From: Octopus vulgaris
Taxonomy: Eukaryota
Assembly: GCA_951406725.2 (NCBI GenBank)
Contig: OX597817.1
Coordinates: forward strand, 100,998,001 to 101,062,000
Reading direction: 5' to 3'
DNA length: 64,000 bases
Shown: in pieces, positions 4,809 to 54,404 of the stretch
Layout of the letters: each line of letters starts with the position of its first letter
How positions within the stretch are numbered: the stretch's first letter is position 1
Notes under the pieces: generated by a model
The model's input: only the letters and a program-made list of their open reading frames with translations
Databases searched by the model: none
What the model was told of the DNA's origin: nothing
Made by a program: the position numbers and the translations under genes

Positions 4809-4827
4809 ATGTGGGTGTGTGTGTGTG

Positions 4828-8781: not shown

Positions 8782-8805
8782 AATAATAATAATAATAATA
8801 ATAAT

Positions 8806-9359: not shown

Positions 9360-9380
9360 AATGATAATAATAATAATAAT

Positions 9381-12883: not shown

Positions 12884-12889
12884 ATAATA

Positions 12890-15517: not shown

Positions 15518-15518
<1 letters not shown>
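13047..15518 (+). mobile_element. Old, heavily degenerate R4/Dong-like element (family 3)
   Basis: NYRPICCL, PLEQKGCRK, INHLLFMGDLKLYGK, KFGLKNC and the C-terminal LQKSALLGTARILRRVL; terminates in a long (AAT)n. Confidence 0.85.
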
Positions 15519-15594
<76 letters not shown>

Positions 15595-15620
15595 TATTAT
15601 TATTATTATTATTATTATTA

Positions 15621-15709: not shown

Positions 15710-16420
15710 ATACATTCTTTATTGACCACCAGTGCCAAACACAAAACATAGAGGACGATACACAGACGAAGGTCAGTGAGGTTAAACGTGTAGACAGCAA
15801 ACAAACACAACGATTAACAAAGAGATTAAATCAACAATATGCTTCCCCAGTAGGGGGAAGTTCCACCGTAAGGTGACCAAAGAGACATCACGCACTGTGG
15901 ACACCTTAACACCAATGGCTCCTCAGGAAGGCACCCTCTCTTCTCGCTTCCATCCGGCCTACAGGCGCACACTTAGAGTAGGCCCATTCACGCGGTCATT
16001 CTTGCCACATTCAACAGCTTTCAACAAACTTACTGACTTTCCTTTAGAGGTGGCGTTGACCAAAGAGGAAGGGACGCGTCTTCAAATTCTTTCAATGGCG
16101 TCCACCGCACAATCTCTTTTGCCATAGCCACCAGATAGAGAAAAATTGCCCTCCCTTCCCGCCAAATGAAGGAAGTGGGGCGATCTTCTCAATCGACTCG
16201 GACGATAGCCAGATCCGTTCTACACGTGACAATAACTGTTCGACAAAGCTCCACAAGTCAGCAATACGCGGATTCTGTACGAGAGCATGCAGAACAGTTT
16301 CATTGCACCGCGTGCATCTCGGACAAGTCCGACTGACTGCACACCCGTACCTGTTGAGCTTATCTAGAACCGACAATGCCCCCAGTAGCACTGCCAGGCC
16401 AGTGATTTCTGGAAGTTATC
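15710..16420 (-). mobile_element. Tx1/L1-like LINE 3' fragment
   Basis: LSVLDKLNRYG..TCPRC..ETVLHALVQ (zf-RVT/CCHC region), homologous to 17751-18236; minus-strand AATAAA near 15720 followed by (TAA)n. Confidence 0.8.
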
Positions 16421-17019: not shown

Positions 17020-17430
17020 AATCCTTTCTACTGGAATCATAAGGCGCCAAATTTGGGGGAAGAGGTTAGATCGATTATATCAACCCCAATGCGTAACTGG
17101 TACTTAATTTACCCACCTCGAAAGGATGAAAGACAAAGTCGATCCCGGCGGCATTTGAACTCAGAACATTGAGATAGACGAAATACTGCTAAGCATTTCT
17201 CCCGGCGTGCGAACGATTCTTTTCTACTCTAGGCACAAGGTCTGAAATTCTGGGGAGGGGAGGAAGTCGATTAGATTGACCCCAGTACGCAAGTGGTACT
17301 TAATTTATCGACCCCGAAAGGATGAAAGGCAAAGTCGACCTGGGCGGAATTTGAACTCAGAACGTAAAGACAGACGAAAAACCAATTTCTTTATTGCTCA
17401 CAGGGAACCAAACACAGAAATGGACAAAAC
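17020..17430 (-). mobile_element. Two tandem tRNA-derived SINE copies
   Basis: Reverse complement contains B-box GAGTTCAAAT(G/T)CC and the body GTCGACTTTG(C/T)CTTTCATCCTTTCG shared with 40135-40368 and 62984-63820. Confidence 0.8.
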
Positions 17431-17449
17431 AACTGATTGAGATCAGTAA

Positions 17450-18231
17450 TACATTATGATTTTACATAAAATATGAATATAAAAATTATCCAAAATATTT
17501 TAAAAATCGAATGAAATTAACAATACAGAGACAACACAAATATAGCGATGATCAAGGCCACGCTCCGACCCCACAAGCCCCGATCTATCGCTTGTACCTT
17601 ATTTTTTGTTCTTCTTTTATAGCCTATTCACACGGTTCCTTGCACACACAACACTTGTGCAACATGCTTCCATCACCTTTTGAACATACTCTCAGACAGA
17701 CACCTCTTCTCCAGCCATACCTTCCTTTTCAAACGAAAAGTAAAAAATGATCATAAATCGCGGCCGGAGATAAAGTTGCCTGTCTTAATCTCTTTTATTA
17801 TCCTAGTCTTCCATACTGCCTCTTTCGCTATAGCTACAACTGTGAGAAAACATTTCTTACTTTCGTTTGTTAAAACTTCCGGTGGATCAATTTTTATTAT
17901 TGACTCAGTCCACAGCTGTACTCTTCCTTCGCCGGACAACAGGTGTTCAGCATAAACCCATATATCAGATATCTCCGGACACTGGACAATAGCGTGAGGG
18001 ACGGTTTCCCTGTCTCCCCCGCATCTTGGACAGGTTAGAGACTGACGCTTACCATGTCTTGCGAGCTTATCCCAAACGGGCAAGGCACCTCTGTAACATT
18101 GCCAGTTCAAGGACTTTTGGAAGTTGTCCAACGTTCTCAACCCGAACGTAGGATGGAACAGGCTGTCCAGTTGAATATACCCGAGACCTAGAGTCCCCCA
18201 GATCAAGGTAACATTTAGACTATACCATCGT

Positions 18232-18232
<1 letters not shown>
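17450..18232 (-). mobile_element. 3' part of a Tx1/L1-like LINE (ORF2 C-terminus + 3' UTR), continuous with 36098-40120
   Basis: LDNFQKSLNWQCYRGALPVWDKL..TCPRCGGDRETVPHAIVQC..VWKTR; YSLNVT peptide at the break is also present at ~36105-36122. Confidence 0.85.
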
Positions 18233-18281
<49 letters not shown>

Positions 18282-18292
18282 TTTATAGAAGG

Positions 18293-18343
18293 AGCTTCTA
18301 CAGGACTAGAACTGTTTCATTCAAATGAAATCATCAGGAAGCT
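18293..18343 (-). ncRNA. Type I hammerhead ribozyme (PLE A)
   Basis: Minus strand AGCTTC-CTGATGA-T-TTC(attt)GAA-T-GAAA-CAG(ttctagtc)CTG-TA-GAAGCT: 6-bp stem I, intact core, GUA triplet. Confidence 0.85.
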
Positions 18344-18556
18344 TGGCGTCAAGAATAGTTTTGGCATTTATACATTTAGGCAGATTTGATGGGGTGGTGG
18401 TGGGGGACTTTTTTGGGGTAGGCAGGGCACAAACTGTCTTTCTTAGGGGAGTGGTCAAAAGAATCAGTGATAAAGTAGATAAATGAATAAATAGAATAAT
18501 AGAATAGAGTTTTAGGTAAATAGGAAGACTATTGCTTATATATATATATATATATA

Positions 18557-18894
18557 ATTAATCAATATAGGGTGGCAAAAAAAATTTTGTAGAATTCTTT
18601 TGCCACCAGCGGCCTAGTAGGAAAAAATTAAAATAGTCATAGACCATTTTTAAGTTCAACATCAACAATAAAGGAACGGCCATAATAGGCCATTCACCCA
18701 CTAGAAATAACAGCCAAAGCTTCAACCGCAAATAAAAGTTAATTCAGTAAACCAGGAGAAAATTTAAAAAATTACAGGGTAAATGTTTTTTAAATTTTCT
18801 CCTGGTTTACTGAATTAACTTTTATTTGCGGTTGAAGCTTTGGCTGTTATTTCTAGTGGGTGAATGGCCTATTATGGCCGTTCCTTTATTGTTG

Positions 18895-18896
<2 letters not shown>
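18557..18896. repeat. Miniature fold-back element: 111-bp perfect inverted repeat plus ~100-nt one-sided extension
   Basis: 18661-18771 = revcomp 18786-18896 with a 14-nt loop; flanked by (TA)n; shares CTAGAAATA(A/G)CAGCCA and an ATTGTTGAT(AT) end with 25597-25802. Confidence 0.85.
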
Positions 18897-18932
<36 letters not shown>

Positions 18933-19191
18933 GTATACATATACATATGTATACACATATACATATGTATACACATACGCACACACACACATACACATAC
19001 TCATACACACACACTTATATACATACGCACATATATATATATACCTACATATATATACAGATACACATACACATACATGCCAACATGCAAGCACACGCAC
19101 ATATATATCTACACATATATATATATATAAAAAAAAGGAATATACACACCCATACACACACACACACATACATATACGCATGCATATATAC

Positions 19192-19272
<81 letters not shown>

Positions 19273-19980
19273 CACATACATGCACATATATACACACACA
19301 TTTTCTCCCTTATTTTATTTTATTTTTATTTTTATTTTATTTTTAGTTTGACCTCTTCAGAATCATAGAAGGTGTAATATATGACCTGCCCACTCGCCGA
19401 CACACATTTAGTGGCGCTGGAGTAGCCGTTCACCGGGGTGCTAGCCGGTCTGAATGAAATCCATTTACCGCCCCTCTCTCTTCCTTCACACTCATACACA
19501 TACACAAAGACATATGTTCTCTCGCTCATTTCCTTATCAGCCACTCATACTTATGTATGTATCTCTCTCTATACAGGCGCATATATACGTATATACATAT
19601 ATATGCATATATGTATGTACATACATATACACACGCAAGTACACATATTCATACATACATAAATGTACCCACTTTCACATAAACGTATACATAACTATGT
19701 ACACACAAAACCACATATATAAAAGTACTTCAGTACACATAAACACACATGAACATCTGCCCGCATATGTACACGCATATGCTTATAAATACATATATGC
19801 ACACATGCGCGCATACACGTGTACATAAAAGCATACCTACATATACATACCTACACACATATATATATCCACATACATGCACGTACATACACATGCGTTC
19901 ACGTACATACAAATATATATCTACACACATACACATACATACATATATACACATACAGAGATCTACAAGTCCTTATATAT

Positions 19981-20027
<47 letters not shown>

Positions 20028-20110
20028 GGTCCCGGGTTGATTCGGGGTTAACCACAGTAAATAAGGTACTCAATACATAGCAGAGTAAAATTAATTTATT
20101 ATATAGAAGG

Positions 20111-20161
20111 AGCTTCTACAGGACTAGAACTGTTTCATTCAAGAGAAATCTTCAGGAAGCT
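20111..20161 (-). ncRNA. Type I hammerhead ribozyme (PLE D)
   Basis: AGCTTC-CTGAAGA-T-TTC(tctt)GAA-T-GAAA-CAG(ttctagtc)CTG-TA-GAAGCT on the minus strand. Confidence 0.85.
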
Positions 20162-21329
20162 AGTTAACAAGAATTGTATTGGCATTTATACATTTAGGCA
20201 GGTTTAAAGGGGTGTTGGTGGGGGACTTTTTGGGGGTAGGCATAGCGCAAAATATCATACTTGGGGGAGTGGTCAAGGAGTCAGTGTTAAATTAGATAGA
20301 AGAATAAATAAAAAAAAAAAAATAAAATAAAAAAATAAAAAAATAAATAAAAAAATAAAAAAATCTATATATAAAAAAAGGGGAATAGAGTTTTAGGTAA
20401 ATAAGGAGATTCTCACTTATACCTATGCACACATGTATACATACATACACACATATACAAACATATATACATATACATACACACATACATACACACACAT
20501 ATATATACATATATATACACTTACACATACATATACATATCTACACATACACATATATGTATACATACACACACTCACATGCATACACGTATACACACAT
20601 GTATATATACACACACGACCACACATACATATACGCACAGAAAAATATATATACACATACACACACATACTCACATACACGCATACACACACGTACCACA
20701 CACACACACACACACAGCACACTAGTCCCTATATACACATACACACACATATACACACACACACATACATATACATACATGTATATATATATATACATAT
20801 ATATACATATGTGTACCTATGCATACCTACACACACACACATATATATACACATACAAATACAGACCCATTCCCTAATTTTAATTTTATTATCTTCGTTT
20901 ATTACTTTTGTTATCTTTGGCCGCTTGGTCACAAACATCTTGGCTATGACAGCCAGTCCATTTATCTGTCTACTGGAAAACAAGCACTCATTCACTCACG
21001 CACACTCTTTAGCACGTACACTCACTCATTCGTACACTCATACACATACACGCACGCACGCGTTATATTCATACATACATACATCTACATACATTCACGT
21101 ATATACAGATACGTACGCGTACCTACAGATTCATGTCTACACTCTTAGAAGGCTAGTCTATATATATACACCAATAAATATAAATACACACACATACATA
21201 TACACCTACATACAAATACATACATGTATATATATATATATATATAAAAAAGTTGAGTTGTGGGGTATCGCACGAGTGGGATTATATAAGAAAAAAGGTT
21301 TGAAAATGCAATTTAAACGATGTTTATTT

Positions 21330-21370
21330 ACTTAACCGGTTTCACTCTTTGGTAAAAGATTGTCAAAAGT
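21330..21370 (-). ncRNA. Degenerate minimal hammerhead-like motif
   Basis: ACTT-TTGACAA-TCTTT(tacc)AAAGA-GT-GAAA-CCG-GTT-AAGT; core has two transitions from CTGACGA; palindromic stem III (AACCGGTT). Confidence 0.45.
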
Positions 21371-21383
21371 TACATTTAAGGAA

Positions 21384-21612
21384 ACATTGAATAATATGGG
21401 TTCAAAAAAGTTTTTTACATAATTGTCACATTGAATATTATGCATTCAAAAAAGTTTTTTACATAATTGTCACATTGGATATTATGGGTTCAAAAAAAGT
21501 TTTTTACATAATTGTCACATTGAATATTATGCATTCAAAAAAGTTTTTTACATAATTGTCACATTGGATATTATGAATTCAAAAATGTTTTTTTATACAT
21601 AATTGTCACATT
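21384..21612. repeat. ~44-bp minisatellite, 5 copies
   Basis: Unit ACATTG(A/G)ATATTATG(GG/CA)TTCAAAAAAGTTTTTTACATAATTGTC. Confidence 0.9.
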
Positions 21613-22158
21613 ATTTGGGAAAATTTGGCAGAAAAGGATAAAACAAATATATTATTGGGAATTGGTTGCGTTAATTATTGGTTGTCGCAAATTGTCACAT
21701 TACATGTATATATATACAATCTTTGGTATATATATACAGCGTTTTGACAGCAAAAATTAAAATGGATTTTTTGTACATCTCAGAATATTTTAAGTATGTT
21801 TTTACTGACCTGTCAGTATTAGCAGAAAGGCTGAACTGAGAGAACAGAAGAAGTAGCCAATGTGGTGTATACTTCCCCTTTATGCATGAATGATTTTGGG
21901 GATATCAGGAGGTTAGTATGCGGGTGTGAATAGATGTGTCCGTGCCTGCTGGTCAGACAGTGTCTGTTTGTCACACACATATATATACACACAAACACAC
22001 ACACACACAACAACACACACACACACACACATAGTATACAAACAACACACACACACACAGAACACACACACCCACACACAACGCACCCACATATATCACA
22101 TATACACACAGCACACAAATATAACATGTATCTATATATAACATACACAGATATATAA

Positions 22159-22211
<53 letters not shown>

Positions 22212-23019
22212 CACACGCACACATACATACATAATATAAATATCACACAAATACACCTAGCATATATATACACACATACAATACACACATACAGCATGTA
22301 AGTAATATACATACACAATATATGCATGCAATATACATACGCAATACATACATATAATATATATATATATAGACAATGCATATACATATATACACATATA
22401 CATATAAATAGTGTTTACATACACATACATAGATGTACCACATATACACACAACACACATACATACAATGCATACACATACACGTACGCATACATATAAT
22501 ATATATATACACACACACACACATAACATACATACACACACAATGCATACATATATATACACGCAATGCATATACATGTATTCATGCACATATAGCACAC
22601 CTACAATATACATATATACAGTGCACACATACACACAAATATATACACTTAATTGTACACGTACATATACAATACACATACATACAATATACATATACAC
22701 AATGCGCATGCAAATAATGTACATGTTTATACACACATAAACATGCAAATAAATATACACACACACACATACACACACACACATATATATATACACATAT
22801 ATATATATATATATACACACATACATACATACATACATACATGCACATACATATATTTTTTCACACACATACACACACATATATATATATAAAAAATTCA
22901 CCCCCCCACACACAAATTACAAACCTATAGCGTACACACTCAAATATATCTCTACATACCGCACACACACACAAACAAAGTACTAACAAATACACACATA
23001 CCATGCATATACACACACA

Positions 23020-23067
<48 letters not shown>

Positions 23068-23232
23068 GATACATATGTAAATACATACACACGTACACAA
23101 TGCTCACACACACACACACACATACACACACACCCGCACACAGTGCACACACACACACACATATATACACACGTGCACACACACACACATACAACGCGCG
23201 CACACACACATATACACACACACGCACACAGT

Positions 23233-23264
<32 letters not shown>

Positions 23265-23405
23265 CACTCACACACATACATCACCTACATATATATAATG
23301 CATGCGTGTGCATGCCACGTATGTGTGCGGTCAATGCCCGCTAGTGCACACACACACACACATACAACGCGCGCACACACACATATACACACACACGCAC
23401 ACAGT

Positions 23406-23445
<40 letters not shown>

Positions 23446-23889
23446 CACTCACACACATACATCACCTACATATATATAATGCATGCGTGTGCATGCCACG
23501 TATGTGTGCGGTCAATGCCCGCTAGTGTGTCCTATGCGTGCCGATGCGCGCATGTGCCCGCCCGCACGATATGCTGTGAGCGTGCGCGCGTCCCTGTGTG
23601 CTTGCTCTGGATGTGCTTCCAGGGAGTATGTTAGAGTATGTTTAGTTGTGGTCTGTATTTTTGAATAAGATTACTTTCCTTATTTATTCGTGTTTGGTCT
23701 GTGGTGTTGTCCGAGCATTGGTATAGTGGGAAGACTAAGAATTTGGGGGACTTATTGTGTGCACAAAGGTCTAAGTGTCCACTTAGTGGTATCTGTCTTG
23801 TGGAGGGGTCCCTCAGTTGTTGTCGGTGAACTAATCCCATAAAAGGCAAAAACAAAACCTTAGACAAATTTTGGACAAATTTCTGGTAC

Positions 23890-25020
23890 CTTTTAAGGTA
23901 CCAGATGTGGGCGGCGAGGGTAGTTTGGTTGGATTTATCCTGTCGCCGGAACGAGTGTGTGTGTGCGTACCAACGAGTCTTAAAGCTGTTTGACGTCATT
24001 CCTATGTAGGATTTTCTTTTATCGTCAGGGCCTGATCTTACCTCGCATGTATATACTAGGTCCCTCTGTAGGCAGTTGTTGTTGAGGGGGCAGGTGGTTT
24101 TATCAGGGCAGTTGCAATTGCTATCGGACGTTGGATGGGCCTCGGAAAAAGTAGATATGTTAAGTTTTTTCACATTGTTGTTGGCTAGGTTCCTGGCTAG
24201 ATTGGGCGTGGTAGAGTAGGAGAGTCTAATAGTGTTCTTATTTAGGATAGTGTAGTACTTATGTTGGGTGGGGAAGTGTTTCTGTAGGAGAGTGAAGAAG
24301 ATTTTAGCTACAGGTGTAGCGACCTCACGGTTGAAGGGGGGTTGTACCAGCTAATGTGTCTTCGTCTATTTTTCCTGGGTTGGCGTGGGGCTATACTAGT
24401 ATAGGTAATCTTATCTTTGAAGCCACTGCGGGCCAGGGCCTCGTTGTAATAGGGGGCTGCGGCCTTAAAGATATCTTCCGTGGCGGACAGGCTAGAAATT
24501 CTAATTGAGACACTTTTTACTAGGTTATCTAATATATTTTTGGGGTGGTTGGAATTAATATCTATATATTTAAGGGATTCATTCGGTTTGTGGTACGGGT
24601 AATAAAGTGAGGTTTTTAAGTCGAGGGTGACATCAAGGAAGTTAGCTTTAGTTAAGTTGGATTCTAAGGTAATCCTAAGGCCTAAGTTTTTAAAGAAGGT
24701 GTAAAGATTTTTCCGGAACCCATCCGTGGTCCTGGGGTTTATTTTGTGGAGGGCGAAAAGGCCGTCATCGCGGTAAAGACCACCGGAGAGGCCTGTGAAT
24801 AGGGTTTTCAGCCTATGGAGGATGAAAAGGCCCACTAGGTCACTTATTTCAGCAGAGTCGTTAGCACCCATGCTGACGTCTAAGGGGGTCACAGATTTTT
24901 TGTTGATCCAGTGGGATCCGTCATAGAAAAGAAAAGTCTTACGTGCGTGGAGGATCACATCTTGCTCGACCTCGGTGATGGTGGAAGACCTCCTGGCGAA
25001 GTTAATCGCGTCGATCAGCA
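23890..25020 (-). pseudogene. PLE reverse transcriptase (motifs B-E, thumb) + Cys-rich linker + GIY-YIG, frameshifted
   Basis: LLIDAINFA..ILHARKTFLF..LDVSMGANDSAEISDLVG..GLYRDDGL..NFLDVTLDL..YHKPN..SNHP..WYNPP; then CNC..CPL..C, VYTCEV, YIGMTSNSFKTRWYAH..LAAHIWYLK. Confidence 0.9.
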
Positions 25021-25411
25021 AGCTCTCGTGGAAACTACTACAGAAGGCGCGCTCGTACACAGGAGGCCATACCTGCTGTGACCTCTGCATATCGGAGAGC
25101 CTAGAGATCTTGTTCGCCAAAGGCCCTCTCCTTAACAAAATCTCAGAACACTCCCCAAATTGTATGCATAAGAAGTATGCGAACTACAAGAACTATAGAC
25201 CTACCCGGCAACCAGATTGATGACCCCCCCCCCCCACAACCCCCCCAATCCCACCGTTCCCCTAGCACCCCCGTTTACCTTTTCTCCTAAGACCTTTCAC
25301 ATATTGTATGTGCACGCTTGTATATGTGTATCGTATATATGTATAGAAATGTATGGGTATAGTAGGATTATACGCATGTATTATGTGTGTGTGTGCGTGT
25401 ATGTATGTAAA

Positions 25412-25466
<55 letters not shown>

Positions 25467-25468
25467 GC

Positions 25469-25501
<33 letters not shown>

Positions 25502-25939
25502 TAGATGTATGTATGTATATATGTATGTATGTGTGTATGCATATGTATGTGTATATGTATGTGTGTATGTATGTGTATGTATGTATAAAATATTATATAA
25601 TTAGGGCTTAGTAAAATAAATTACTTTGCCACATACTGAACTTTCTAGAAATAGCAGCCAATAAAGTTTTTTAGCCTCTTCCACTACTTAGAGAATATTT
25701 TCCCTCAGACATTGTTTACTCATAAAAATAATGGTCCTTTTACATACTGAATACTTGGTGAAATTGATTAATAACTAATTAACTTTACCCTCAATTGTTG
25801 ATATACGTATGTGTGTGTATATATATGTGTGCGTATGTGTATATGTACATGTATGTATATGTGTATGTATGTATGTATGTATGTATATGTATATATATAT
25901 GTATGTATATGTATATATATATGTGTATATATATATGTA

Positions 25940-26010
<71 letters not shown>

Positions 26011-26255
26011 GTATGTGTGTGTATATGTGTATTATATATGTATAGATTTATATATATGTATATGTATGTGTATATGTATGTGTGTGTGTATATGTATATA
26101 TGTGTATATATATGAGTGTACGCGAGTATGTCGATGTATATGTAGGTATGTAGAGTTATGTGTATGTACAGGTATGTGAGTGTAGATACAAATTGTAGAT
26201 GTGTATATATATGTATGTGTATATATACATGTATATAGGTATATGTATGTGTGTG

Positions 26256-26300
<45 letters not shown>

Positions 26301-26391
26301 GCGAGTATGTAGAGATATAAGTATGTGCATGTGTATATGTATATGTGTGTATATATATGTATGGGTATGTGTATGTGTATGTATGTATGTG

Positions 26392-26432
<41 letters not shown>

Positions 26433-26889
26433 ATGTATGCATATACGTATGTATGTATGTATGTATGTACATGTGTATGTATATATGTGTGTAAGTGTGT
26501 GTATATATGTAAATGTAAGTGTGTGTGCTTGTATGAGAATGTATGTATGTTTGCACACATGTATATATATGTGTGTGTATGTGTATGTGTATATATGTGT
26601 GTATATATGTATATATATATATATATATGTATGTATATATATATATATATGTGTATGTATATATATGTGTATGTATATATATGTGTATGTGTGTGTGTGT
26701 GTATACATGTGTGTATGTGTATGTATGTATGTATGTATATATATGCGTGTGTATGTGTATGTGTATGTGTACATATACGCGTACGCTCGTGTGTTTATGT
26801 ATATGTAGGTACGTAGAGTTATCTATGTGTGTATTTATATGTACATGTGTGTAAGTATGTATATATATATATATATATATGTGTGTGTA

Positions 26890-26950
<61 letters not shown>

Positions 26951-27604
26951 ATGTGTGTAAGTTTATATGTATGTATCCGTCTATATAATAGGTAACTGCA
27001 CGTACATATACTTAATATTTATTATTTATCTTTTGAGTATGCATGTATGAATAACTGCGCGTATATATATTTTACTATTTACTTATTTTTTGAGTATGCA
27101 TGTAAGTATGAATATAAGGAGGCGCGTGTGTGTGTGTGTATGTGTAAGCATAGATATATGTATACTTCTACGCATGGGTGTACTTATGTGTATATATGGA
27201 TGCGCGCGCGTGCGTGTGTGTATGGGTACGCATGTACATGTGTATGTGCGTGTATGAGTATATGAGTATGTATGTATGTGTGTGCGTATATTTGTATATG
27301 TATGTATGTATATGTATGTGTGTGTATGAATGTGTGTGTATATGTGTATATGTATGTATATATATGTATATATATATATATATATAGATATATATATATA
27401 TATGCGCGTGTATATATATGTATGTATGTGGGTGTGTGTATGTGGATAAATGTATGTATGTATGGATGTATGGATGTATGTATGTATACGTATGTATGTG
27501 TATGTGTGTATATGTATGTATGTGTATGTGTCTATATATATGTATATGTGTGTGTATGTGTATGTGTGTGTATGTGTGTATGTATATGTATGCGTATATA
27601 TATG

Positions 27605-27659
<55 letters not shown>

Positions 27660-28734
27660 ATTTGTATGTAGGTGTATATGTATGTGTGTGTATTTATATT
27701 TATTGGTGTATATATATAGACTAGCCTTCTAAGAGTGTAGACATGAATCTGTAGGTACGCGTACGTATCTGTATATACGTGAATGTATGTAGATGTATGT
27801 ATGTATGAATATAACGCGTGCGTGCGTGTATGTGTATGAGTGTACGAATGAGTGTGTGTACGTGCTAAAGAGTGTGCGTGAGTGAATGAGTGCTTGTTTT
27901 CCAGTAGACAGATAAATGGACTGGCTGTCATAGCCAAGATGTTTGTGACCAAGCGGCCAAAGATAACAAAAGTAATAAACGAAGATAATAAAATAAAAAT
28001 TAGGGAATGGGTCTGTATTTGTATGTGTATATATATGTGTGTGTGTGTAGGTATGCATAGGTACACATATGTATATATATGTATATATATATATACATGT
28101 ATGTATATGTATGTGTGTGTGTGTATATGTGTGTGTATGTGTATATAGGGACTAGTGTGCTGTGTGTGCATGTGTGTGTGTGGATACGTGTGTGTATGCG
28201 TGTATGTGAGTATGTGTGTGTATGTGTATATATATTTTTCTGTGCGTATATGTATGTGTGGTCGTGTGTGTATATATACATGTGTGTATACGTGTATGCA
28301 TGTGAGTGTGTGTATGTATACATATATGTGTATGTGTAGATATGTATATGTATGTGTAAGTGTATATATATGTATATATATGTGTGTGTATGTATGTGTG
28401 TATGTATATGTATATATGTTTGTATATGTGTGTGTATGTATGTATACATGTGTGCATAGGTATAAGTGAGAATCTCCTTATTTACCTAAAACTCTATTAC
28501 CCTTTTTTTATATATAGATTTTTTTATTTTTTTATTTATTTTTTATTTTTTTATTTTATTTTATTATTTTATTTTTTTATTTTTTTATTTATTCTTCTAT
28601 CTAATTTAACACTGACTCCTTGACCACTCCCCCAAGTATGATATTTTGCGCTATGCCTACCCCCAAAAAGTCCCCCACCAACACCCCTTTAAACCTGCCT
28701 AAATGTATAAATGCCAATACAATTCTTGTTAACT

Positions 28735-28785
28735 AGCTTCCTGAAGATTTCTCTTGAATGAAACAGTTCTAGTCCTGTAGAAGCT
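28735..28785 (+). ncRNA. Type I hammerhead ribozyme (PLE D)
   Basis: AGCTTC CTGAAGA TTTCTCTTGAAT GAAA CAGTTCTAGTCCTG TA GAAGCT; predicted cleavage after 28779. Confidence 0.85.
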
Positions 28786-28796
28786 CCTTCTATATA

Positions 28797-28835
<39 letters not shown>

Positions 28836-29172
28836 CACACATACACGCATACACATACGTATATACCTACATATACATACACATATACATATACATATAC
28901 ATATATATACCAATACACACATATACATATATATATACATATATACACATACATATACATACACATACATATACATATATATACACACATACATACATAC
29001 ATACACCCTCCCACATGTATACAGGCATATACACACTTATACATACATATACATATATATATACATATATATACACAAATACACGCATATACATATATAT
29101 ATACATATATACACCGGTACACATACGCATACATAAATATATACCCACACACATGTATACAAGCATATACAC

Positions 29173-29247
<75 letters not shown>

Positions 29248-29748
29248 GACACACACATATACATATATATATACATATATAGACCAATACACATACGCAT
29301 ACATAAATATATACATATGCATATACACACAGGTATACAAGCATATACAGACATATACACATACACACACATACACATGCATATATACACATGTATATAT
29401 ATATATACATATACATACATATATATACACACAGACACACACATATACATATATATATACATATATACACCAATGCACATACGCATACATAAATATATAC
29501 ATATGCATATAGACATGCATACATATACACACACACGCGCGCACCTATATATACATAAATACATACAAGCATACATACATATACATATACACATATACAT
29601 ACATGCATACACAAATAATAAATATATATACATGCAGATACCCATACTTACACATACATATACGCGTACATGCACATATACACACAGATATATACACACA
29701 AATATACACATACATATATACATACATATATACATATATATACATATA

Positions 29749-31092
29749 GAAATTCAGGGTGAGTACTTGATAATTGTAAGCACCTGTATATACCGTTTGG
29801 TGGTGTAGGTGGTGGAGTAAATTAATCAAAATAAAAACACAATGCCAAGGATTCAGCGGTACATATGTTTCGGGCCTTTATTAGACGGATTTATAACAAT
29901 GCATAATGTGTGTCTATGGCCTTCTTCAGCCGCGCACAACTACTACCTCAAGGACATGTATTACATAAAAAATTCTACGTTGGGGAAGCAAATCCTCTCA
30001 TTCGCGTACGACACAATGCGGCAACAGCATAAAAATGAAGCGTCCATCTCGTCCTTCTCTCAATGTAGAATGAGGAAGTTTGGATGTTGAGGTAATATAA
30101 ATAAATGAATAAATAAATATATACATATATAAATACAGACAGACGTGAAGGAACCTGGTAATAAGAGCAAATAGGGATAAAGATGGAGGGGCGAGAATTC
30201 AGGACGAAGGATAAAAAAATATATAAAAAGTGTAAGTATAGAAAAATATAAAAATGTAGAGTATAAAGATATAAAGAGATATATAAAAAAATATAAATGA
30301 ATATAAAGGTATAAAGTTATAAAAAAATAAAAAAATAAAAAAAATAAAAAAATAAAAAAGATTATCAGAAATATAAAGGGTATAAGAGTGTAGGAATGTA
30401 AAAGAATATAAGGATAAGGGATATATAGTAGTTACGGACCAACATGGTGGTCAGGAAAATGACAAATTCTGGTTCTAGAAGGCTTGGGTGTCATAAATCA
30501 ACCGGGGCGTCTGGGAACCTAGTGTATTGTAAATTAGAGTTGTTTGGTTGAGCTGTTTATCTAGTTCTTCGTAACGTGTTAAGTGGTCATCATGTACATA
30601 CGTACACGCATGGATACATACACCCATATCCACGCGCACATATACGCACGCATACGCAACTACACGCATACAATCATACATACGTACTCTCGTGTAAACA
30701 TATACAGATATACATGGAAAAAAGCGCATGTAGTTGGGTACACGAACCGACGCGTATACGTACGTACATACATACATACACTCATATGCGTTCATATAGG
30801 CACACTCGCACTTACACGCATGTACAAGACGAAGTGAATCTCTATGCGTGTGGGCAGGAATATGTATATACCTGCACTCGCGTCCACCTCCACGCACATG
30901 GGGGAGTAGATCCCTATGCATATACACAAAAGTATGCATATGCACAGACACAGGTGTAACAAAAGGATCCGTTCTCGCACACGGGCAAGATACGGAGTCA
31001 TAGTGGGTACATTAGGTAGACATGAACGTAAGAAACTTGCGGGCAAAAGATTTTAACAGAATATGCATATATATACACGGACAATATACATA

Positions 31093-31124
<32 letters not shown>

Positions 31125-34100
31125 TACGCATATATATATACACATATATGTATATATATATATGTATATATATACATATACACACATATACATACAGACA
31201 CATACACACACCCATACCCGCACACGCACATATATATATGTGTGCATACATACACACCCACGTGTACATACATACACGCATACATACATACACACGGACC
31301 CACGCACACGTATCCACACGCACACACACACACATCTGTGTGTCTATACGTGCGTGTGCATATACACTTACATACACATACACAGACACACACACATATA
31401 GGTATAGATATAAGATATTAAAAGATGTATAAAAAATGTATATAAGAAATCTACAAACGCATGTAAAAAAAACGGACCCACGCACACGTATCTACACGCA
31501 CACATACACACATCTGTGTGTCTATACGTGCGTGTATACATACACTTACATACACATACACAGACACACACACATATAGGTATATATATAAGATATTAAA
31601 AGATGTATATATAAGAAATCTACAAAAGCATGTGAAAAAATTATAAAAAAAGTATAACGGGGGGGTACACATATAAACACAGATATTTACTCATACATAC
31701 GCATACACATATATACATATACATATATACACAGACACACGTATAATCATAAAGCGGATACATAGTTAAGTAAACAAGGAAAAAAGCTAAAAATATACAT
31801 ATATAGAGATATAAAGTGATAGAATAGGGGTAAAAATAGGAGTAAGAATAAGGGTAAGAATAATAATTAGAAATAAAAATAAGAAATAAAATATAAAATA
31901 TAAAAATTAAAATAAAGAATAAAAATAAAAATAAGAATAAAAATAAAATAAAATAAAATAAAAATGTAATCGGGTAAAGCTTAAAATGAGATGAAGGTAA
32001 AAATAAAGGGTGGTTGAAAATGTAAAGTTATAGGTGTGTGTTAAAGGTGACCACGTAGGGGCGGGCGGGGGGAACTGAGAATTGGAAGGGTGGGAAGCGG
32101 GGTTTGGTGGTGTGCGCTCAACATCAGAGTTAGAAATGGAAAAAGGTATAGATATAGGGAAACAAAAAATCTAGATAGGAAGAAGGTAGGTGTAGGAGAA
32201 GAAATATATAGGAAAAAACATATATGGGAGACAAAATATGTATATATAGGAAAATATATATAGGGAAACGGGATGCGCTGGAGCCGACAGGTTGCACTTG
32301 GGTGGGAGGAAATTGCATGGGGGAGTTGGTATAATAGCCTAAGTTTTGTAGTATTTGAAAGTATTAATAAGTTTCTGACCTTTTGTTAATAAGATTGTGT
32401 TTCTCCTTGAATTTCAAGATATTCAGGAGTTCTACACAACATAGTTGGCATCCTGCTCTAATATTTAAATAAGGTGCAGCTGATCCGATGATGGACCACC
32501 TGAGTTTGAAACCTATGCTTTTGTCTTTTAATTCCCAAATTTTCTTAGAAAGGGAAGTGCTGCTAGCTTTATGTCTATGCTTAAACGAGGACCGGTGGTT
32601 GTGGTATCTAGATTTCCAGGAGGTCGAGCAACCTATGTAGGTGAGTGTGTTAAACTGGGTACTCACCTCACATGAATAGATTACGTTTTTCGCCCTACAT
32701 ACACCACGTAGCGGACACTCGGATGCACATATGCAGTTGCAGTGCACTGCATTTTCCGGTCGTGTGTTGTTAGTCCCAGGCGGAGGTGTTGCATTAAGTG
32801 TAGGGGCACTATTATCCTCCTGGTTGTTGATTGGTGTGGTGTTGCCTCTGTTGTGTTGGCGGGTGTTATTACTAACTGTTTGGGTATTATGGTTGCCAGC
32901 CCGATTATATTGACTACTGTCTGGATGAATGGGGTTCGATTGGTTGTTATAGCCTGCTCTTAATCTAGCTGTTCTAATGTTAATATAGATATGCTTAGCT
33001 ATGAGGCAGCTCATGTTGGGCAGGGTAGAGTAGGAGATCCTAATGGTTTTGTTGGAGAAGATACTTCTATACTTATGGGTGGGTGGGAAGTTGTTGGAAA
33101 TGATAGAGAATATTCTCTTACATAATTTACCCCTAACTGCTATGTTGTATGGTATGTTGTACCATATATATTTGCGTAATCTACTATTTCCGCCTCTATT
33201 TCTCCTAATATGATCTGTGTTGCTCTCGTCGAAAGGGTTATCATTGTGTACTATTCTATTGGTTCGCCTTTTTCCTATACGTTGCTTAGAAGTTAAATTA
33301 GAATTAGCGTTAGCTTGGGTTGAATACGGAGTTCGTTTATAAGTGGGAGTTTTACAGCCGACGGACGTTCCTACATGCGCTTTTTTCCATGTATATCTGT
33401 ATATGTTTACACGAGAGTACGTATGTATGATTGTATGCGTGTAGTTGCGTATGCGTGCGTATATGTGCGCGTGGATATGGGTGTATGTATCCATGCGTGT
33501 ACGTATGTACATGATGACCACTTAACACGTTACGAAGAACTAGATAAGCAGCTCAACCAAACAACTCTAATTTACAATATACTAGGTTCCCAGACGCCCC
33601 GGTTGATTTATGACACCCAAGCCTTCTAGAACCAGAATTTGTCATTTTCCTGACCACCATGTTGGTCCGTAACTACTATATATCCCTTATCCTTATATTC
33701 TTTTACATTCCTACACTCTTATACCCTTTATATTTCTGATAATCTTTTTAATTTTTTTTTTTTTTTAAATTTTTTTATAACTTTATACCTTTATATTCAT
33801 TTATATTTTTTTATATTTTTTTATATATCTTTTTATATCTCTTTATATCTTTATACTCTACATTTTTATATTTTTCTATACTTACACTTTTTATATATTT
33901 TTTTATCCTTCGTCCTGAATTCTCGCCCCTCCATCTTTATCCCTATTTGCCCTTATTACCAGGTTCCTTCACGTCTGTCTGTATTTATATATGTATATAT
34001 TTATTTATTCATTTATTTATATTACCTCAACATCCAAACTTCCTCATTCTACATTGAGAGAAGGACGAGATGGACGCTTCATTTTTATGCTGTTGCCGCA

Positions 34101-34285
34101 TTGTGTCGTACGCGAATGAGAGGATTTGCATCCCCAACGTAGAATTTTTTATGTAATACATGTCCTTGAGGTAGTAGTTGTGCGCGGCTGAAAAGGCCAT
34201 AGACACACATTATGCATTGTTATAAATCCGTCTAATAAAGGCCCGAAACATATGTACCGCTGAATCCTTGGCATCGTGTTTTTAT
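29749..34285 (-). mobile_element. Penelope-like element E with ~900-bp inverted pLTR
   Basis: 29831-30733 = revcomp 33371-34285; GIY-YIG ORF between the arms; TA-rich flanks. Confidence 0.85.
32364..33370 (-). pseudogene. PLE C-terminal region with GIY-YIG endonuclease (5'-truncated, open frame)
   Basis: RKYIWYNIPYN..FPPTHKYRSIF..IRISYSTLPNM..CNC..CPLRGVC..VIYSCEV..YIGCSTSWKSRYHNH..LSKKIWELK..CQLC..E..LINKRSE; the first ~50 aa of the listed ORF come from the inverted arm. Confidence 0.88.
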
Positions 34286-34462
34286 ATATACATATATATA
34301 TATATATAAATATATATACACATACACAAAGCATACAAGCGTACATATATATACACCCATATACGTATACATACATACATACAAACACATAGATCGACGC
34401 ACATAAGCACATACAAATATATATCCATATCCAAATTCATATTCATATTCATATCCGAATTT

Positions 34463-34495
<33 letters not shown>

Positions 34496-34784
34496 CATAT
34501 ACATACGTAAATACACATACACATATACATACGTGTATTCGTATCCACATACGCACACTCATATCTACATTTATACACATATATATACATGTGTACATAT
34601 ACACACCCATTAACATATACACATGCATATACCTACACATGAATATATATCCGTGTACACACACACACATACACTAGTACATATACATACACACCCACAT
34701 ATATCTATAAATACATATATATATATATATACATACATGTACATATACATTCACATACACATACACAGATATACATAGATACAT

Positions 34785-34847
<63 letters not shown>

Positions 34848-35650
34848 TAAAGCCATGTACACATATACACATACACACGTATACACGCCTTCACATACAC
34901 ATGTACATACACTGTTGCACATGCGCTCACATACAAATACGTATATGCACTCGTATACATATATGTACGCACACACACACATGCAAACATCCATATATAT
35001 GTGAATAGTCGTAGGAGAGAAGGTAATTGGGGGTGCTGAAGGAAAGGTGGGGGTGGGGTGTTTTTGTGGGTGGGGTGTCGTCAATCGGGATGCCTGGTGG
35101 GTCTGTAGTTTTTGTAGTTTGCATAAATTTTGTGCATACAGTTTGGGGAGTGTTCCGAGATCTTGTTGAGGAGAGGGCCTTTGGCGAACAAGATCTCCAG
35201 GCTCTCAGAAATGCAAAGGTCACAGCAGGTATGGCCTCCTGTGTAAGCCCGCGCTCTCTGTAGTAGTCTCCACTTGATCTTGAAGGGGATGGAGTTAAAA
35301 TAAAAATAAAATAAGGGAGAAAATGTGTGTGTATATATGTGCATGTATGCGTGTATGTATGTGTATATATATATATATGTGTGTATGTGTATGTGTGTAT
35401 ATATGCATGTGTATATGTATGTGTGTGTGTGTGTGTATGGGTGTGTATATTCCTTTTTATATATATATATATGTGTAGATATATATGTGCGTGTGCTTGC
35501 ATGTTGGCATGTATGTGTATGTGTATCTGTATATATATGTAGGTATATATATATATGTGCGTATGTATATAAGTGTGTGTGTATGAGTATGTGTATGTGT
35601 GTGTGTGCGTATGTGTATACATATGTATATGTGTATACATATGTGTATGT

Positions 35651-35713
<63 letters not shown>

Positions 35714-35905
35714 CAATAGTCTTCCTATTTACCTAAAACTCTATTCTATTATTCTATTTATTCATTTATCTACTTTATCACTGATTCTTTTGACCACTCC
35801 CCTAAGAAAGACAGTTTGTGCCCTGCCTACCCCAAAAAAAGTCCACCACCACCACCCCATCAAATCTGCCTAAATGTATAAATGCCAAAACTATTCTTGA
35901 CGCCA

Positions 35906-35956
35906 AGCTTCCTGATGATTTCATTTGAATGAAACAGTTTTAGTCCTGTAGAAGCT
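35906..35956 (+). ncRNA. Type I hammerhead ribozyme (PLE A)
   Basis: AGCTTC CTGATGA TTTCATTTGAAT GAAA CAGTTTTAGTCCTG TA GAAGCT. Confidence 0.85.
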
Positions 35957-36038
35957 CCTTCTATAAAATAAATTAATTTACTCTGCCATGTATTGAGTAC
36001 CTTATTTACTGTGGTTAACCCCGACTCAACCCGGGACC

Positions 36039-36097
<59 letters not shown>

Positions 36098-36100
<3 letters not shown>

Positions 36101-39100
36101 ATCGTAACATTCAAACTATAAAATCCGTGTAGAACCTCCACCGCTGGCGTTGCTCGAGCGCCTAAATAGCAGGATGGCCTTACGGCATTTTTTATGCCAT
36201 TCACTTGACCTCAGTCTACGAAAACACCAAGCTTCTTGTTCGCAAAAACTTTTGAACTCGGGGAACATTTGTCTGGCCAGCGGAGACCACACCCGTTCAC
36301 CATCAACGTATGACTGCGCATCATTAACCAAGGCATCCCTAAACCTCCCTTTAACAGCTTTTGATAAAAGACAGAACGTTTCACAAGTGGCGACCTGCCC
36401 TTCCACAAAAAGCGAAAGAGCTGTCTCTCCAACCTGATCAACCACGAATCCGGACAGGGCACGACGGTCAGGAGGTAGGTAATGACCGATGACATAAACA
36501 CATTGGCCGCCTCCGCCATCCCTTTCAGGGATAGCTACCACCAAGACCAGGTCTTGACTACTGCAGCCACCCTGCTCGAAACCTCCGTCCAGTTCTTCTC
36601 TTTCTGGAGGCCTGGTCTAACCAGACTCCCAGCAAGTTAACCACTCCCTCTTTCCAGCGCCCAGCAACGCTGTCTGAAGGCATTGACTTGCCAACCCTGG
36701 TGTCGAACCTTTCCCGGTTAATCTTTGCTCCTGCCACAAACTTGTAAACTTACTCACTTCACGTAGGCGTGCTAATGTGTTTACGCTGATTGTGATATCG
36801 TCCGAGTAAACTGTAACAAACTCCTCTAAACCTGATTGTCTCGGATGCCACTCAACCTTCGCAGTAGGGTCTCAAGAGCCACCACACGCAAAAGTGGTAG
36901 GAGCGGATATCCTTGACAAACCGAGCGCCTGATGCAGAACGGCTTCGAAAGGAAACCCAAACTATCGAGTCAATGTTGTGATACAAAGCGATAAAGCACC
37001 TGCGGAAGCCAAGGCCTAGGCCGAACTGTGCAAGCACAGTCGCCAGGCATCGATGGTCAATCCTACAAAAAGCTTTAGACTGGTCCAAATGTACCAATGC
37101 CCCACCTCTATGGTATAGCAAATAAGGTGGAGATTATCCTGAATAGTTTTGCCTGGGATGGCACATATCTGTACCTCTCCGACTATACCATTCGCGTCAC
37201 GCGCCAACCTTTTTGCAAAGACCTTGGGTAAAATCTTCACTTTTGCGTTTAACAGAGTGGTGGACCTGAAGTTATCTAAAACGTCCCCCTTGTCCGGGTC
37301 TTTTCTGATCAACGTCACTACTCCCCGGCGCTCAGACCTGGGGATAAACCCATTCTGTTGCCAGTTCGCGTACACGTCAGCCAGTAGGTGCCCGAACAAG
37401 TCTGGCATACATTTATACAGCTCGTACGGAAGACCAACAACTTCCGGCGACTTATTCGCTTTACAAGTCGGCCATAGCCTCCATCTCCTCCACAGGTGTG
37501 ATCGGCCCTTCGCTTCCGACCACGAGAGGCACGGCAGCCCGGCAAGAAAGTCCTCGAGGACTCCCCCACCATCAGGACCGCCATGACCCCTGAATAGCTG
37601 GACGAAGTACTCCCGAAAGGCCTCACACATGTCCTCGGGTTCGTTTACCAGGACACCATTTTGATTCGTCCAAACTATTTCCTTGTCGAGCTTCCCCCAC
37701 TCGGACCCATCCAGCGGCCTTGATTCCTTCACTTCCCATCGCACGTAACTTAGCTCTGGCAATACTTCCCATGTGTTGGGCTTCAAGATGCTGGTTTAAC
37801 TCCAGTTTCTTCACCTTCACTTGGTCCACGTTACCAGTCCTCCAGGCTTCTTCTAGTACCTTAACTAGACCATCTCTTATTCTACGTCCATTCTTAGCTA
37901 AACTTATGCTAAACCTAATAGACTAATATTGTATGGCTCTTTTTAGGGCGTACCACAATTTGTTATTAATGATGGTACCTGTCAATGCCCTCTGTGTTAA
38001 CATTTCTTTCCGCTTTCTGTGCTTCCCAATCGCCAAAAGGGACGTATTGAGTTTCCAGTAGCCCGATCCCTGTCTATGCAACTTATCTACTGTCAGCTTA
38101 CAGGTAACCATATTGTGATCATTGTAGCTGACTAGATAAATTGTGGACACTTATCTGTTTTCCTCATTAAAACCGTATCGAGATATGTTTTGGAAGACCC
38201 GTCATTATTTGACCACGTTCACTGTGGAGTGTTCGGGTGTTCCAACATATTTGGATCTGGTAACTGAAAGTGACTTAGCAGATCCCGTAAGCCAGGGTTA
38301 CATTTTCTATTCATGTTCCAGCCAACACAATGTGTGTGTACGTCACAGATTGTGTTCAAGCCTCTTATCAGTATTAGCGAATGCGACGTGGACAGGAACT
38401 TGCCCAGATCACGAAAATACTCACTTTGCGGCCATAACGTTGAGTGCATAAATTGCAACCAGCCTGATTATCTGAATGTCAGGTCGAGGACGACCAACTT
38501 GCCTTCTGGATCAGAAACAAACAACTTTTTGGGGGGGCTACCCGGTTTCGTTTTAGTAGGATCAACATCCCACCCCCACCTTCCGCCCGTCTCGGAGAAA
38601 AGTATTTCTCATAGACGTTCAGGAGGTGGGGCAGATCTCTTGGTCCATTCACCCGGCTTTCCGTTGCAACAATCACATCCAATTTTCTTGACCTGATGTC
38701 ATTTAAGAAGCGTCCTTGCTTCCAACTAGACAGGCCACGAACGTTTATACAACCATTGTGAATAGACATTACTTACATATTTAGTCCGGGGTGTCCTGTG
38801 GAGAGGGACTCTCTACCTTTTCTTGACATAGGGTCGGAGGTGGCAAGTCTTGAAAAATGAATTGATTAAAGTCCGATCTCATCATCGACACCGACTTTCT
38901 ATACGTGTTAAGTAATACATTATGAGTCTTTTTATCCATTTCGTAGAACTCGTAATTCTTATATTTATCAGAAAGTTCTGCAATCCTAGTGGCTGACTTT
39001 TCGCTTTAATTTCTCTCATTAAATCTTCATTTTTACTGTATAACGCGACTATCCCTCTGTTTTCTGCTTCCTTCCTTACTCTCCTTCTCCTCACCATCGG

Positions 39101-40120
39101 AAATCTTCCTCGCCGTCTCTACAGTGTTTTTTATATGGCCCAGCTGGCCGCACTCGAAAAATCGGGGCTTACGCCTCTCGACGAATACGTTAAGGAATTC
39201 CTCCCCAATTTCTATTTTCTCCGGTAACTATTCTAAAATTGACTGTTCTGCTTGTATAAGGAGGTGAACCGTCTGACCGGTCCAATAAGCCTTTTCTGTG
39301 ATGGTAGCCTGAAGGAGTGCTATATTAATCTTCCTTTTTTGCCAGGACTACCACCATCAACCACACAGGGTCGACTTGAGGTGGGACCCTTGGTATACGT
39401 ATCTTTGACGCCCTCATTCCCATACATATTGGAATTAAAACAATGTCGTCCATTTCTAAAGATTTAACTGAGTGTATTTGTGCAGTTTCTATATCGTTTA
39501 GTCGTACTTCGATAGTACCAAACTTCTTCCCTTTGGCTAGGTATGTGATATCCTGCCAGTTGGGCTTCAAGCACTTCTCAATTTTCTCTTCGCTCACTCG
39601 ATCAATTTTTTTCCTTTTAGACAATAAGATTTTAAAATAATTGTTTTTCTTTTTTCTAACATTAATAGTTCTTCCGGGAGTTGAACTTTCACAACACCGT
39701 CTTCAATTGCTATCATATCTTTGTAATTTATCAGGTCATTTTAAATTTGTCGACAGCTGGCGGGTTCCACCAACATACGCCGACGCAAAACTTCTTTATT
39801 TTCTTCTGTTTAAATGTTTTTCACAATATTCCTCTTTGCAACAGTATACATTGATGGTTGAAGAAATTCACTTTCAGAAGAAGCAGAAATATCGCCAAAT
39901 ATTAAGCTTTCAATCTTTTTTGCCACCCTGTCGGTTGACGACTCTTCGCCAGACGAAGTTACACTTTTCAGCATCTTGTCAGCAATTAATGTTTCCCTCA
40001 CAGGGGAAAACATACAATAGTTTTCGAAATAAGACACAAGTAATTATAACAGGAACAATAATTATAACAAGAAATAGCACAAAAACAGTCAATAGAATCT
40101 TGCATTTCAATAATAATTAC
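36098..40120 (-). mobile_element. 5' part of a Tx1/L1-like LINE (ORF1 with zinc knuckle; ORF2 APE + RT), degenerate
   Basis: ORF1 pieces incl. FFECGQLGHIKKHC-like knuckle near 39120-39165. ORF2 start MSIHNGCINVRGL..DVIVATES (APE), DHNMV, GYWKLNTSLL, KSPEVVGLPYELYK, NFRSTTLLN, LDQSKAF, KGGLGMP. Confidence 0.88.
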
Positions 40121-40134
40121 CCATAAATCCAAAC

Positions 40135-51905: not shown

Positions 51906-51966
<61 letters not shown>

Positions 51967-54364: not shown

Positions 54365-54404
<40 letters not shown>

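Follow-up and report, generated by a model that had tools for sequence, protein, structure and literature searches.

The 64,000-nucleotide (nt) stretch of Octopus vulgaris DNA analysed here (the window; contig OX597817.1 of assembly GCA_951406725.2, forward-strand positions 100,998,001 to 101,062,000, with coordinates below counted from its first base) contains a 17.8-kb nest of Penelope-like elements (PLEs) lodged in an old long interspersed nuclear element (LINE). The nest comprises three units, A, D and E, which probably belong to the Hydra clade of PLEs, a piece of a probably Neptune-type PLE (C'), and several smaller insertions (Table 1). The original prediction, made from the DNA letters, had proposed that PLEs inserted serially into the untranslated region (UTR) of one PLE inside a LINE, up to four levels deep, and that the second open reading frame (ORF2) of this LINE breaks off at 18232 and resumes at 36098. 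The anatomy agrees with the former, and both ORF2 halves match four homologs in order. One of these, P0159 (1111 amino acids, aa), carries an APE endonuclease (EN), a reverse transcriptase (RT) and a zf-RVT domain in a single ORF2 and aligns collinearly with the minus strand, from residue 59 (38512) to 901 (36128) on one side of the nest and from residue 920 (18194) to 1104 on the other; the identical 18-residue gap across the break is also seen with the homologs P0002, P0003 and P0156. Since both halves match single homologs collinearly, they derive from one LINE, whose ORF2 is interrupted by stops and frameshifts. The break is accompanied by a 17-bp duplication, equalled in 1 of 200 shuffles, and an 11-bp duplication that overlaps it is an alternative target-site duplication.

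Table 1. Features of the PLE nest and of its host LINE (coordinates within the window).
Feature	Position	Strand	Remarks
Tx1-like LINE, 3' part	17385-18235	-	ORF2 C-terminus, zf-RVT at 18194-17637; outer end approximate
17-bp duplication at LINE break	18208-18224 (left), 36104-36120 (right)	+ (left)	2 mismatches between copies
A long copy, 3' end	18276-18556	-	hammerhead 18293-18343; no tail; adjoins (TA)n 18236-18275
Mini-element 1	18557-18896		in (TA)n tract of A's left arm, missing from A's right arm; unclassified
A 3' UTR piece 3	18897-20024	-	18897-19330 also present in A's right arm
D left arm	20025-21246	-	arm 20094-21246; hammerhead 20111-20161; 69-nt tail 20025-20093
G, probable extra insertion	21247-21700		454 bp, unclassified, at end of D's left arm
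Neptune-type PLE 3' piece (C')	21717-23832	-	last 66 GIY-YIG codons (23831-23634), ~1.9-kb UTR; 3' end approximate
Inverted ~50-bp piece of Neptune ORF 5' part	23833-23881	+	twin-priming-like
7-nt snap-back copy of 23899-23905	23882-23888		at junction
Hydra-type RT-EN piece	23889-25027	-	RT motif A to mid-endonuclease; one frameshift near 24335
D plus copy	25028-28802	+	last 63 endonuclease codons, ~3.4-kb UTR, hammerhead 28735-28785, no tail
Mini-element 2	25591-25800		within D's UTR; presumed insertion
A 3' UTR piece 2	28803-29749	-	assigned by polarity and summed length only
E long copy	29750-33370	-	hammerhead 29856-29933; 81-nt tail 29750-29830
E short inverted arm	33371-34285	+	hammerhead core without one base
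A long copy, 5' part	34286-35296	-	last 71 endonuclease codons and UTR piece 1
A short inverted arm	35297-36042	+	hammerhead 35906-35956; 69-nt tail 35974-36042; then (TA)n to 36098
Tx1-like LINE, 5' part	36099-40140	-	degraded ORF2, P0159 residues 59-901 at 38512-36128; outer end approximate

All three inverted-repeat pairs of the original prediction are present, with outward hammerhead motifs and one-sided tails. BLAST delimits them at 18276/35973 for A, 20094-21246/27631-28802 for D and 29831-30733/33371-34285 for E, and the arms of A reach about 680 bp, beyond the BLAST match, if mini-element 1 is skipped. Five of the six arms (both of A, both of D and the left one of E) carry a strict type I hammerhead motif at their outer ends, always facing outward, while the motif in the right arm of E has suffered a 1-nt core deletion. 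Thirty block shuffles of the window yielded four loose hits in total, compared with five strict motifs in the nest and two in a further element, F. Tails of 69-81 nt are found on one side only of each unit, and the A and D tails match in 64 of 66 positions. Outward hammerheads and one-sided tails on inverted arms mean that A, D and E each consist of two 5'-truncated copies arranged head to head, with their 3' ends outermost; this layout, the one-sided tail and the hammerheads are on record for PLEs (PMC8557442). An Rfam search (E <= 0.05) returned no hammerhead among the best 150 of its 161 matches, which were microRNA-precursor models on simple repeats or hairpins, all under the gathering score, and metagenome scans for the hammerhead end of A and D found none. 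Read as the start of an ORF, the tails gave no match in a protein profile search. They share, with the tail of F (54295-54370), a short hairpin-capable core, and the hammerhead motifs of A, D and F contain an ATG, as in the PLE PAc. An assignment to animal non-LTR (long terminal repeat) retrozymes was rejected, as the hammerheads here are single at the arm ends and there are no tandem short non-coding units; the available part of a retrozyme preprint (10.64898/2026.07.22.740005) mentions neither octopus nor nests.

Similar units are seen elsewhere in the window. F (51966-54370) is another Hydra-type unit with arms 99.8% alike, a tail on the right, hammerhead motifs at 52000 (-) and 54223 (+) and an endonuclease stub from about 53015; it is flanked by an additional inverted pair of 51 bp (51743-51793/54367-54417), and its flanks also contain a short segment bounded by TA tracts. 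An older inverted unit at 4810-5569, with arms about 3.6% apart, has a GIY-YIG C-terminal stub from about 5110, and more short palindromic repeats, without hammerhead motifs, lie at 626-1269 and 43878-44152.

Outside microsatellites the arms of A, D and E are at least 99% alike (substitutions 2/287 in A, 2/508 in D, 5/673 in E, and 0/98 in mini-element 1), and they differ by scattered substitutions and indels. An apparent contrast between A (13/656) and D (4/1137; p 0.001) was discarded as the product of a slipped microsatellite alignment. Mini-element 1 stands in just one of A's arms, and the same holds for G and the Neptune piece in D, so these three are younger than the arms that they interrupt. 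Mini-element 1 consists of a 104-bp single-copy end and 112-bp palindrome arms, in which a hammerhead motif was not found, and has a 17-bp motif and a terminal word in common with mini-element 2. Both had been predicted to be mini-elements; absence from A's other arm bears this out for the first, while the second may be an insertion. G had been overlooked. It is flanked by two copies of a 16-bp word (at 21221 and 21701) that otherwise occurs only in D's arms. Local tandem duplications are seen within G (21384-21612, 44/89 bp), the Neptune UTR (23176-23527, 181 bp) and the UTR of E (31294-31640, about 178 bp).

A lies in pieces between the other units. Its CA-rich pieces had been proposed to join into one minus-strand UTR, and polarity and summed length speak for this: every piece has the polarity of A's sense strand, and the rejoined A body (3368 nt) is within 6% of the length of the D body (3565 nt without mini-element 2), the endonuclease stubs of the two being 86% identical (176/204 alike). 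Collinearity does not support it throughout, as unique 9-mers common to both UTRs are collinear only over the initial ~290 and the terminal ~330 nt and scattered in between. The reconstruction from rejoined pieces is thus plausible. The long copy of E, with a body of 3540 nt, holds a Hydra-type linker and endonuclease (33370-32364) followed by a 2.5-kb UTR.

The middle of D has an anatomy other than first supposed. What had been described as one inner element, 'PLE C', is a Neptune 3' piece joined to an inverted Hydra-type RT-EN piece that continues in the plus-strand body of D. We rejected the ORF at 23634-24350 as a single gene: the Neptune-type homolog P0001 matches only its last 66 residues (23831-23634; 83% over 66 aa). 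Hydra-type homologs (all statistics on these refer to the best 150 of 4291) stop on the RT-EN piece at about 23892 and resume on the plus strand near 25020, with both sides in order in 46 of 150; seven of their high-scoring segment pairs enter the Neptune stub, solely as gapped extensions at 30-34%. The loose ends of matching contigs, judged by eye in the 13 listed of 129, tell the same breakpoints: other copies continue from 23889 into the residues NSIPFKIKW and from 25027 into RT motif A, with the plus copy beginning at 25028, and the Neptune stub stops at 23832. The short segment 23833-23881 resembles P0001 residues 95-107 (1/300 shuffles, best of six frames), and the loose end of four contigs continues the Neptune ORF from it. 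Between the RT-EN piece and the D plus copy 23 nt are missing. Behind the Neptune piece the left arm of D is never resumed, with about 2.4 kb of D absent there, and the junction is therefore not a clean insertion. No hammerhead was found in the Neptune piece by a strict scan or by a relaxed scan of 21230-21990. Both the D-family and the Neptune pieces show few listed differences from the dominant letters of the matching contigs, indicating that both are young. An in-frame chimera of two clades thus reads as one ORF, so that such regions become mis-annotated.

As predicted, the outer junctions lie in (TA)n or TA-rich tracts, those of A, D and mini-element 1 being in (TA)n, for A and D at both ends. 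The UTR of A has 11 tracts of (TA)6 or longer in 2880 bp and that of D has 14 in 3586 bp, compared with 4 in 17,000 bp and 14 in 23,001 bp of the flanks; with densities of 2.1-5.0 per kb (junction tracts counted in), the two UTRs are 5-10 times richer in such tracts than the flanks, at 0.24 and 0.61 per kb. Because the microsatellites are present in both arms of each unit, they travel with the element. A preference for (TA)n is on record for nearly all Hydra families and for Neptune (PMC8557442), and nicking of AT-rich DNA in its own pseudo-LTR (pLTR) has been proposed for PAc (PMC11167929). That PLEs 'target each other' was therefore an overstatement, in that mutual recognition is not needed where the published (TA)n preference acts on (TA)n-rich UTRs. 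In place of the at least five later insertions originally counted, we arrive at six inner pieces: D, E and mini-element 1 in A, and the Neptune piece, G and mini-element 2 in D.

Taken together, we consider it probable, at roughly 0.6, that the nest is a stack of recent PLE insertions, likely successive, into (TA)n or TA-rich sites supplied by the UTRs of A and D. With its anatomy corrected, the nest is mostly accounted for by known PLE behaviour. Each PLE would nick a (TA)n or TA-rich site and have its RNA copied from both strands, leaving two 5'-truncated copies head to head, while the long (TA)n-rich 3' UTRs of A and D would supply targets and make each copy a landing pad for the next. A would have entered the old LINE, then D, E and mini-element 1 the UTR of A, and, within D, mini-element 2, the Neptune piece and G would have followed. 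The left copy of D may once have been unbroken from RT motif A (25027) to the tail; Neptune RNA would have been copied from a (TA)n nick in it, and, much as in twin priming, the snap-back and the inverted 50-bp piece would link the Neptune 5' end to a break lying 23 nt beyond the base of the 3.5-kb inverted repeat of D, with loss of about 2.4 kb of D. One locus would thus illustrate how PLEs that target microsatellites, and bring such targets with them, can accumulate in multi-kilobase piles and give rise to microsatellite-rich DNA. In the open-licence literature we found no report of PLE-in-PLE nests in microsatellite UTRs; subscription papers, Repbase or supplements may hold some.

A number of observations, gathered here and in the next three paragraphs, weigh against this reading. 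The junctions of E and mini-element 2 are merely TA-rich. The 4.9 kb of LINE contain no (TA)6+ tract, and attempts to restore the empty site give 37, 59 or 70 nt (37 or 59 nt with the two duplications at the break), compared with 54 nt in the homolog, which leaves the target of A unexplained. The interiors of the rejoined A UTR and the D UTR do not align, and monomer minimum-energy folds do not favour the hammerheads (z -1.05 to +0.88).

Arm divergences, all below 1%, give no age order (Fisher p 0.62-1.0), so that D and E are later than A by geometry only. Equally young arms are also what one would expect if D and E had already resided in the donor copy of A and were copied along as passengers in one long cDNA, and both indeed lie outside the duplicated part of A, without direct ordering. 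Such a cDNA, however, would have had to reach a length of up to 17 kb and to cross two long inverted repeats as well as two hammerhead motifs on the same strand, and mini-element 1, G and the Neptune piece, each in one arm only, must have arrived on site. We therefore regard a passenger origin as very unlikely.

The first base of the A body directly follows the base at which the inverted RT-EN piece ends, with the break at 23889, and a break at the exact base where A begins is not explained by random deletion. This coincidence, together with the 23 nt missing before the plus copy, as in L1 twin priming, and the nearness of both the D-family and the Neptune pieces to the dominant letters of other copies, would fit an origin of the middle of D in one complex event: an RNA with an internal end about 200 nt before the stop codon would have contributed its 3' part as the D plus copy (and the A body) and its 5' part as the inverted RT-EN piece, while Neptune RNA was copied into the unfinished junction. 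In line with this, five of the seven PLE bodies in the window have their start about 150-215 nt ahead of the ORF end (213 nt for A, 190 for the D plus copy, 199 for Neptune, about 153 for F and, counted to the conserved ORF end, about 205 for the element at 4810-5569), despite UTR lengths between about 0.25 and 3.4 kb. Simulated truncation produced such bunching in 0 of 40,000 trials when ends were drawn uniformly, and an exponential model with a mean of 500 or 250 nt gave p of 0.003 or 0.028, values that apply to a clustering spotted post hoc at n=7, two of the points coming from outside the nest. E (1007 nt) and the D minus copy (1352 nt) break the pattern, the ordinary layout of one long and one short copy fits D, given a deletion, and the Neptune piece, located at a (TA)n tract, resembles any ordinary insertion of later date; the RT-EN piece, moreover, could belong to the A or the D subfamily, given how alike their stubs are. 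On balance a single event in D seems to us rather unlikely. Still more doubtful is its generalization, in which a cut or an internal start would provide PLE RNAs of more than one clade with a discrete internal end, some 200 nt ahead of the stop codon, that fixes most copy ends and gives UTR-only, (TA)n-loaded copies plus a 5' half copied in reverse, D then being a single cross-clade insertion of both halves of a cut Hydra RNA and of Neptune RNA. In the available parts of the literature, the upstream copy of Penelope in D. virilis is variably truncated (Schostak et al., PMC2377424), and RNA coverage is raised at the ORF C-terminus (Frangieh et al., PMC11167929); truncation bunched near the stop codon was not found reported in open-licence literature, and subscription papers, Repbase or supplements may differ. 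If genome-wide, the bunching would offer a precise handle on how PLE pseudo-LTRs and inverted units arise.

Finally, among the pieces listed no contig or read bridges a junction in 23540-25330, the only interval over which independent records were checked, in four runs. Two contig sets cover 30/30 bins of this interval, and near-identical sequence occurs in 19 runs from 8 studies, possibly including the source of the window. Two raw-read runs, labelled with the species of the best contig source, contributed 2 and 10 reads to this interval, which has a high copy number in the contig sets. One may thus ask whether the layout is partly an assembly artefact, with abundant repeat copies joined via microsatellites, the more so as every part is a repeat of high copy number (10^3-10^5 in summed contig depth) and most junctions fall within simple repeats. 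Yet scattered differences distinguish the arms, the LINE halves join in register, the summed length of A agrees with that of D, and the inner junctions in unique sequence bear repair marks (the snap-back, the inverted piece and the blunt 25027/25028 join). Misassembly of the nest is unlikely, and even a partial artefact has little probability in our estimation, less than any other alternative considered here.

The host resembles Tx1/L1-type LINEs in its APE endonuclease, RT and zf-RVT in one ORF2 and differs in being a degraded copy; the label Tx1, rather than L1, is that of the original prediction and is provisional, the APE-RT-zf layout being observed. Metagenome scans for relatives of this LINE found none. 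The LINE apparently lies inside a dispersed repeat (17217-17382 and 40142-40368; more copies at 17022-17186 and 62864-63799), with a short direct repeat at its ends, which would make a fifth level of nesting. The same LINE group is represented by a second 3' fragment at 15962-16420 (-), which ends in an (AAT)n tract. Further LINE copies, presumably RTE-like, are found at 8230-12892, 13460-15600 and 56878-59734; they contain RT frames and terminate in (TAA)n, and 11833-12892 is 93% alike to 58643-59734.

Judged by their endonuclease and linker motifs, hammerheads and (TA)n junctions, A, D and E probably belong to the Hydra clade. A C-terminal GIY-YIG endonuclease after the RT in one ORF is indicated by the full-length homologs P0011, P0021, P0008 and P0052, which align with RT then EN on the D piece and with EN on the stubs of E, A and D; Pfam gave no match to the PLE fragments of the window nor to their full-length Hydra-type homologs. 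The linker CxCx5C, present in 109/150 homologs, reads CNCPDKTTC in the D piece and CNCICASEC in E, while A begins downstream of it. A CxxC between GIY and YIG is absent from the D and E translations and from all homologs (0/150). CxxC and CxH motifs about conserved residues E and N are found in 78/150 and 81/150 homologs and in the stubs of A and D (CDLC..E..N..CMH); element E has the CxxC, and its CxH region is frameshifted. Among the 12 longest homologs, RW[KR] occurs in 5/12, DK[TS] in 9/12 and DKG in 0/12, and the window copies are all truncated downstream of these motifs. The linker, GIY-YIG and CxxC/CxH traits define the Hydra clade (Craig et al. 2021, PMC8557442), which includes the 2507-bp Hydra-1_Obim of Octopus bimaculoides.

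Compared with known systems, C' appears Neptune-type, or possibly Nematis-type, by its nearest homolog, P0001. The sequence of P0001 shows a DKG motif, the linker in the form Cx4CxxC and a CCHH endonuclease, and Pfam matches a GIY-YIG domain in it; the window keeps only the last 66 codons of such an ORF. C' is like Neptune PLEs in its stub and in a 3' end at a TA tract; it differs in that no hammerhead motif or second 3' arm was found, and in its 50-bp inverted ORF 5' piece, its join to the RT-EN of another clade and the loss of target sequence. L1 twin priming attaches an inverted 5' piece to a 5'-truncated body and removes sequence at the pivot. The Neptune piece, and possibly D, is alike in the inverted 5' piece and the pivot deletion, but the Neptune piece has no framing target-site duplication, and at its second end it meets a break in another element, 2.4 kb distant when measured in D coordinates.

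For PAc of Anolis (Frangieh et al. 2024, PMC11167929), both strands are cleaved and extended, and the tail is the interval between two RT start sites. According to the available parts of the work on PAc and on the Drosophila virilis element Penelope (PMC2377424), cleavage of both strands and two RT starts explain units like ours, with two outward 3' ends but one tail, and these systems are also alike in their AT-rich targets, including the own pLTR, and in a pLTR that is mostly the 3' UTR of a 5'-truncated copy. They differ in that the nest units have no partial tandem or full-length copy, and in that the upstream copy of PAc/Penelope is variably truncated, whereas the 5' ends in the window bunch near the ORF end.

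The Hydra clade, as far as its description was available (PMC8557442), has the same linker, a GIY-YIG without CxxC, the CxxC/CxH motifs, a type I hammerhead near the 3' end and (TA)n junctions, and its member Penelope-13_HM has an inverted 5'-truncated copy in common with the nest units; nests of this kind were not found in that part of the description. Hydra-clade members are generally shorter than 3 kb (published elements 1080-3045 bp; File S1 of the same paper), a descriptive rather than diagnostic trait, whereas the truncated bodies of A, D and E alone measure 3368, 3565 and 3540 nt. With microsatellite-rich UTRs of 3.2-3.4 kb in A and D and 2.5 kb in E, the implied elements would span about 5-5.7 kb, longer than published Hydra elements, and their tails of 69-81 nt exceed the 30-40 nt of published Hydra PLEs (PMC8557442). 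Their hammerhead sequences differ from the one listed for Hydra-1_oBim, indicating that A, D and E are other families, and we therefore propose that they probably represent new families with unusually long, self-targetable UTRs.

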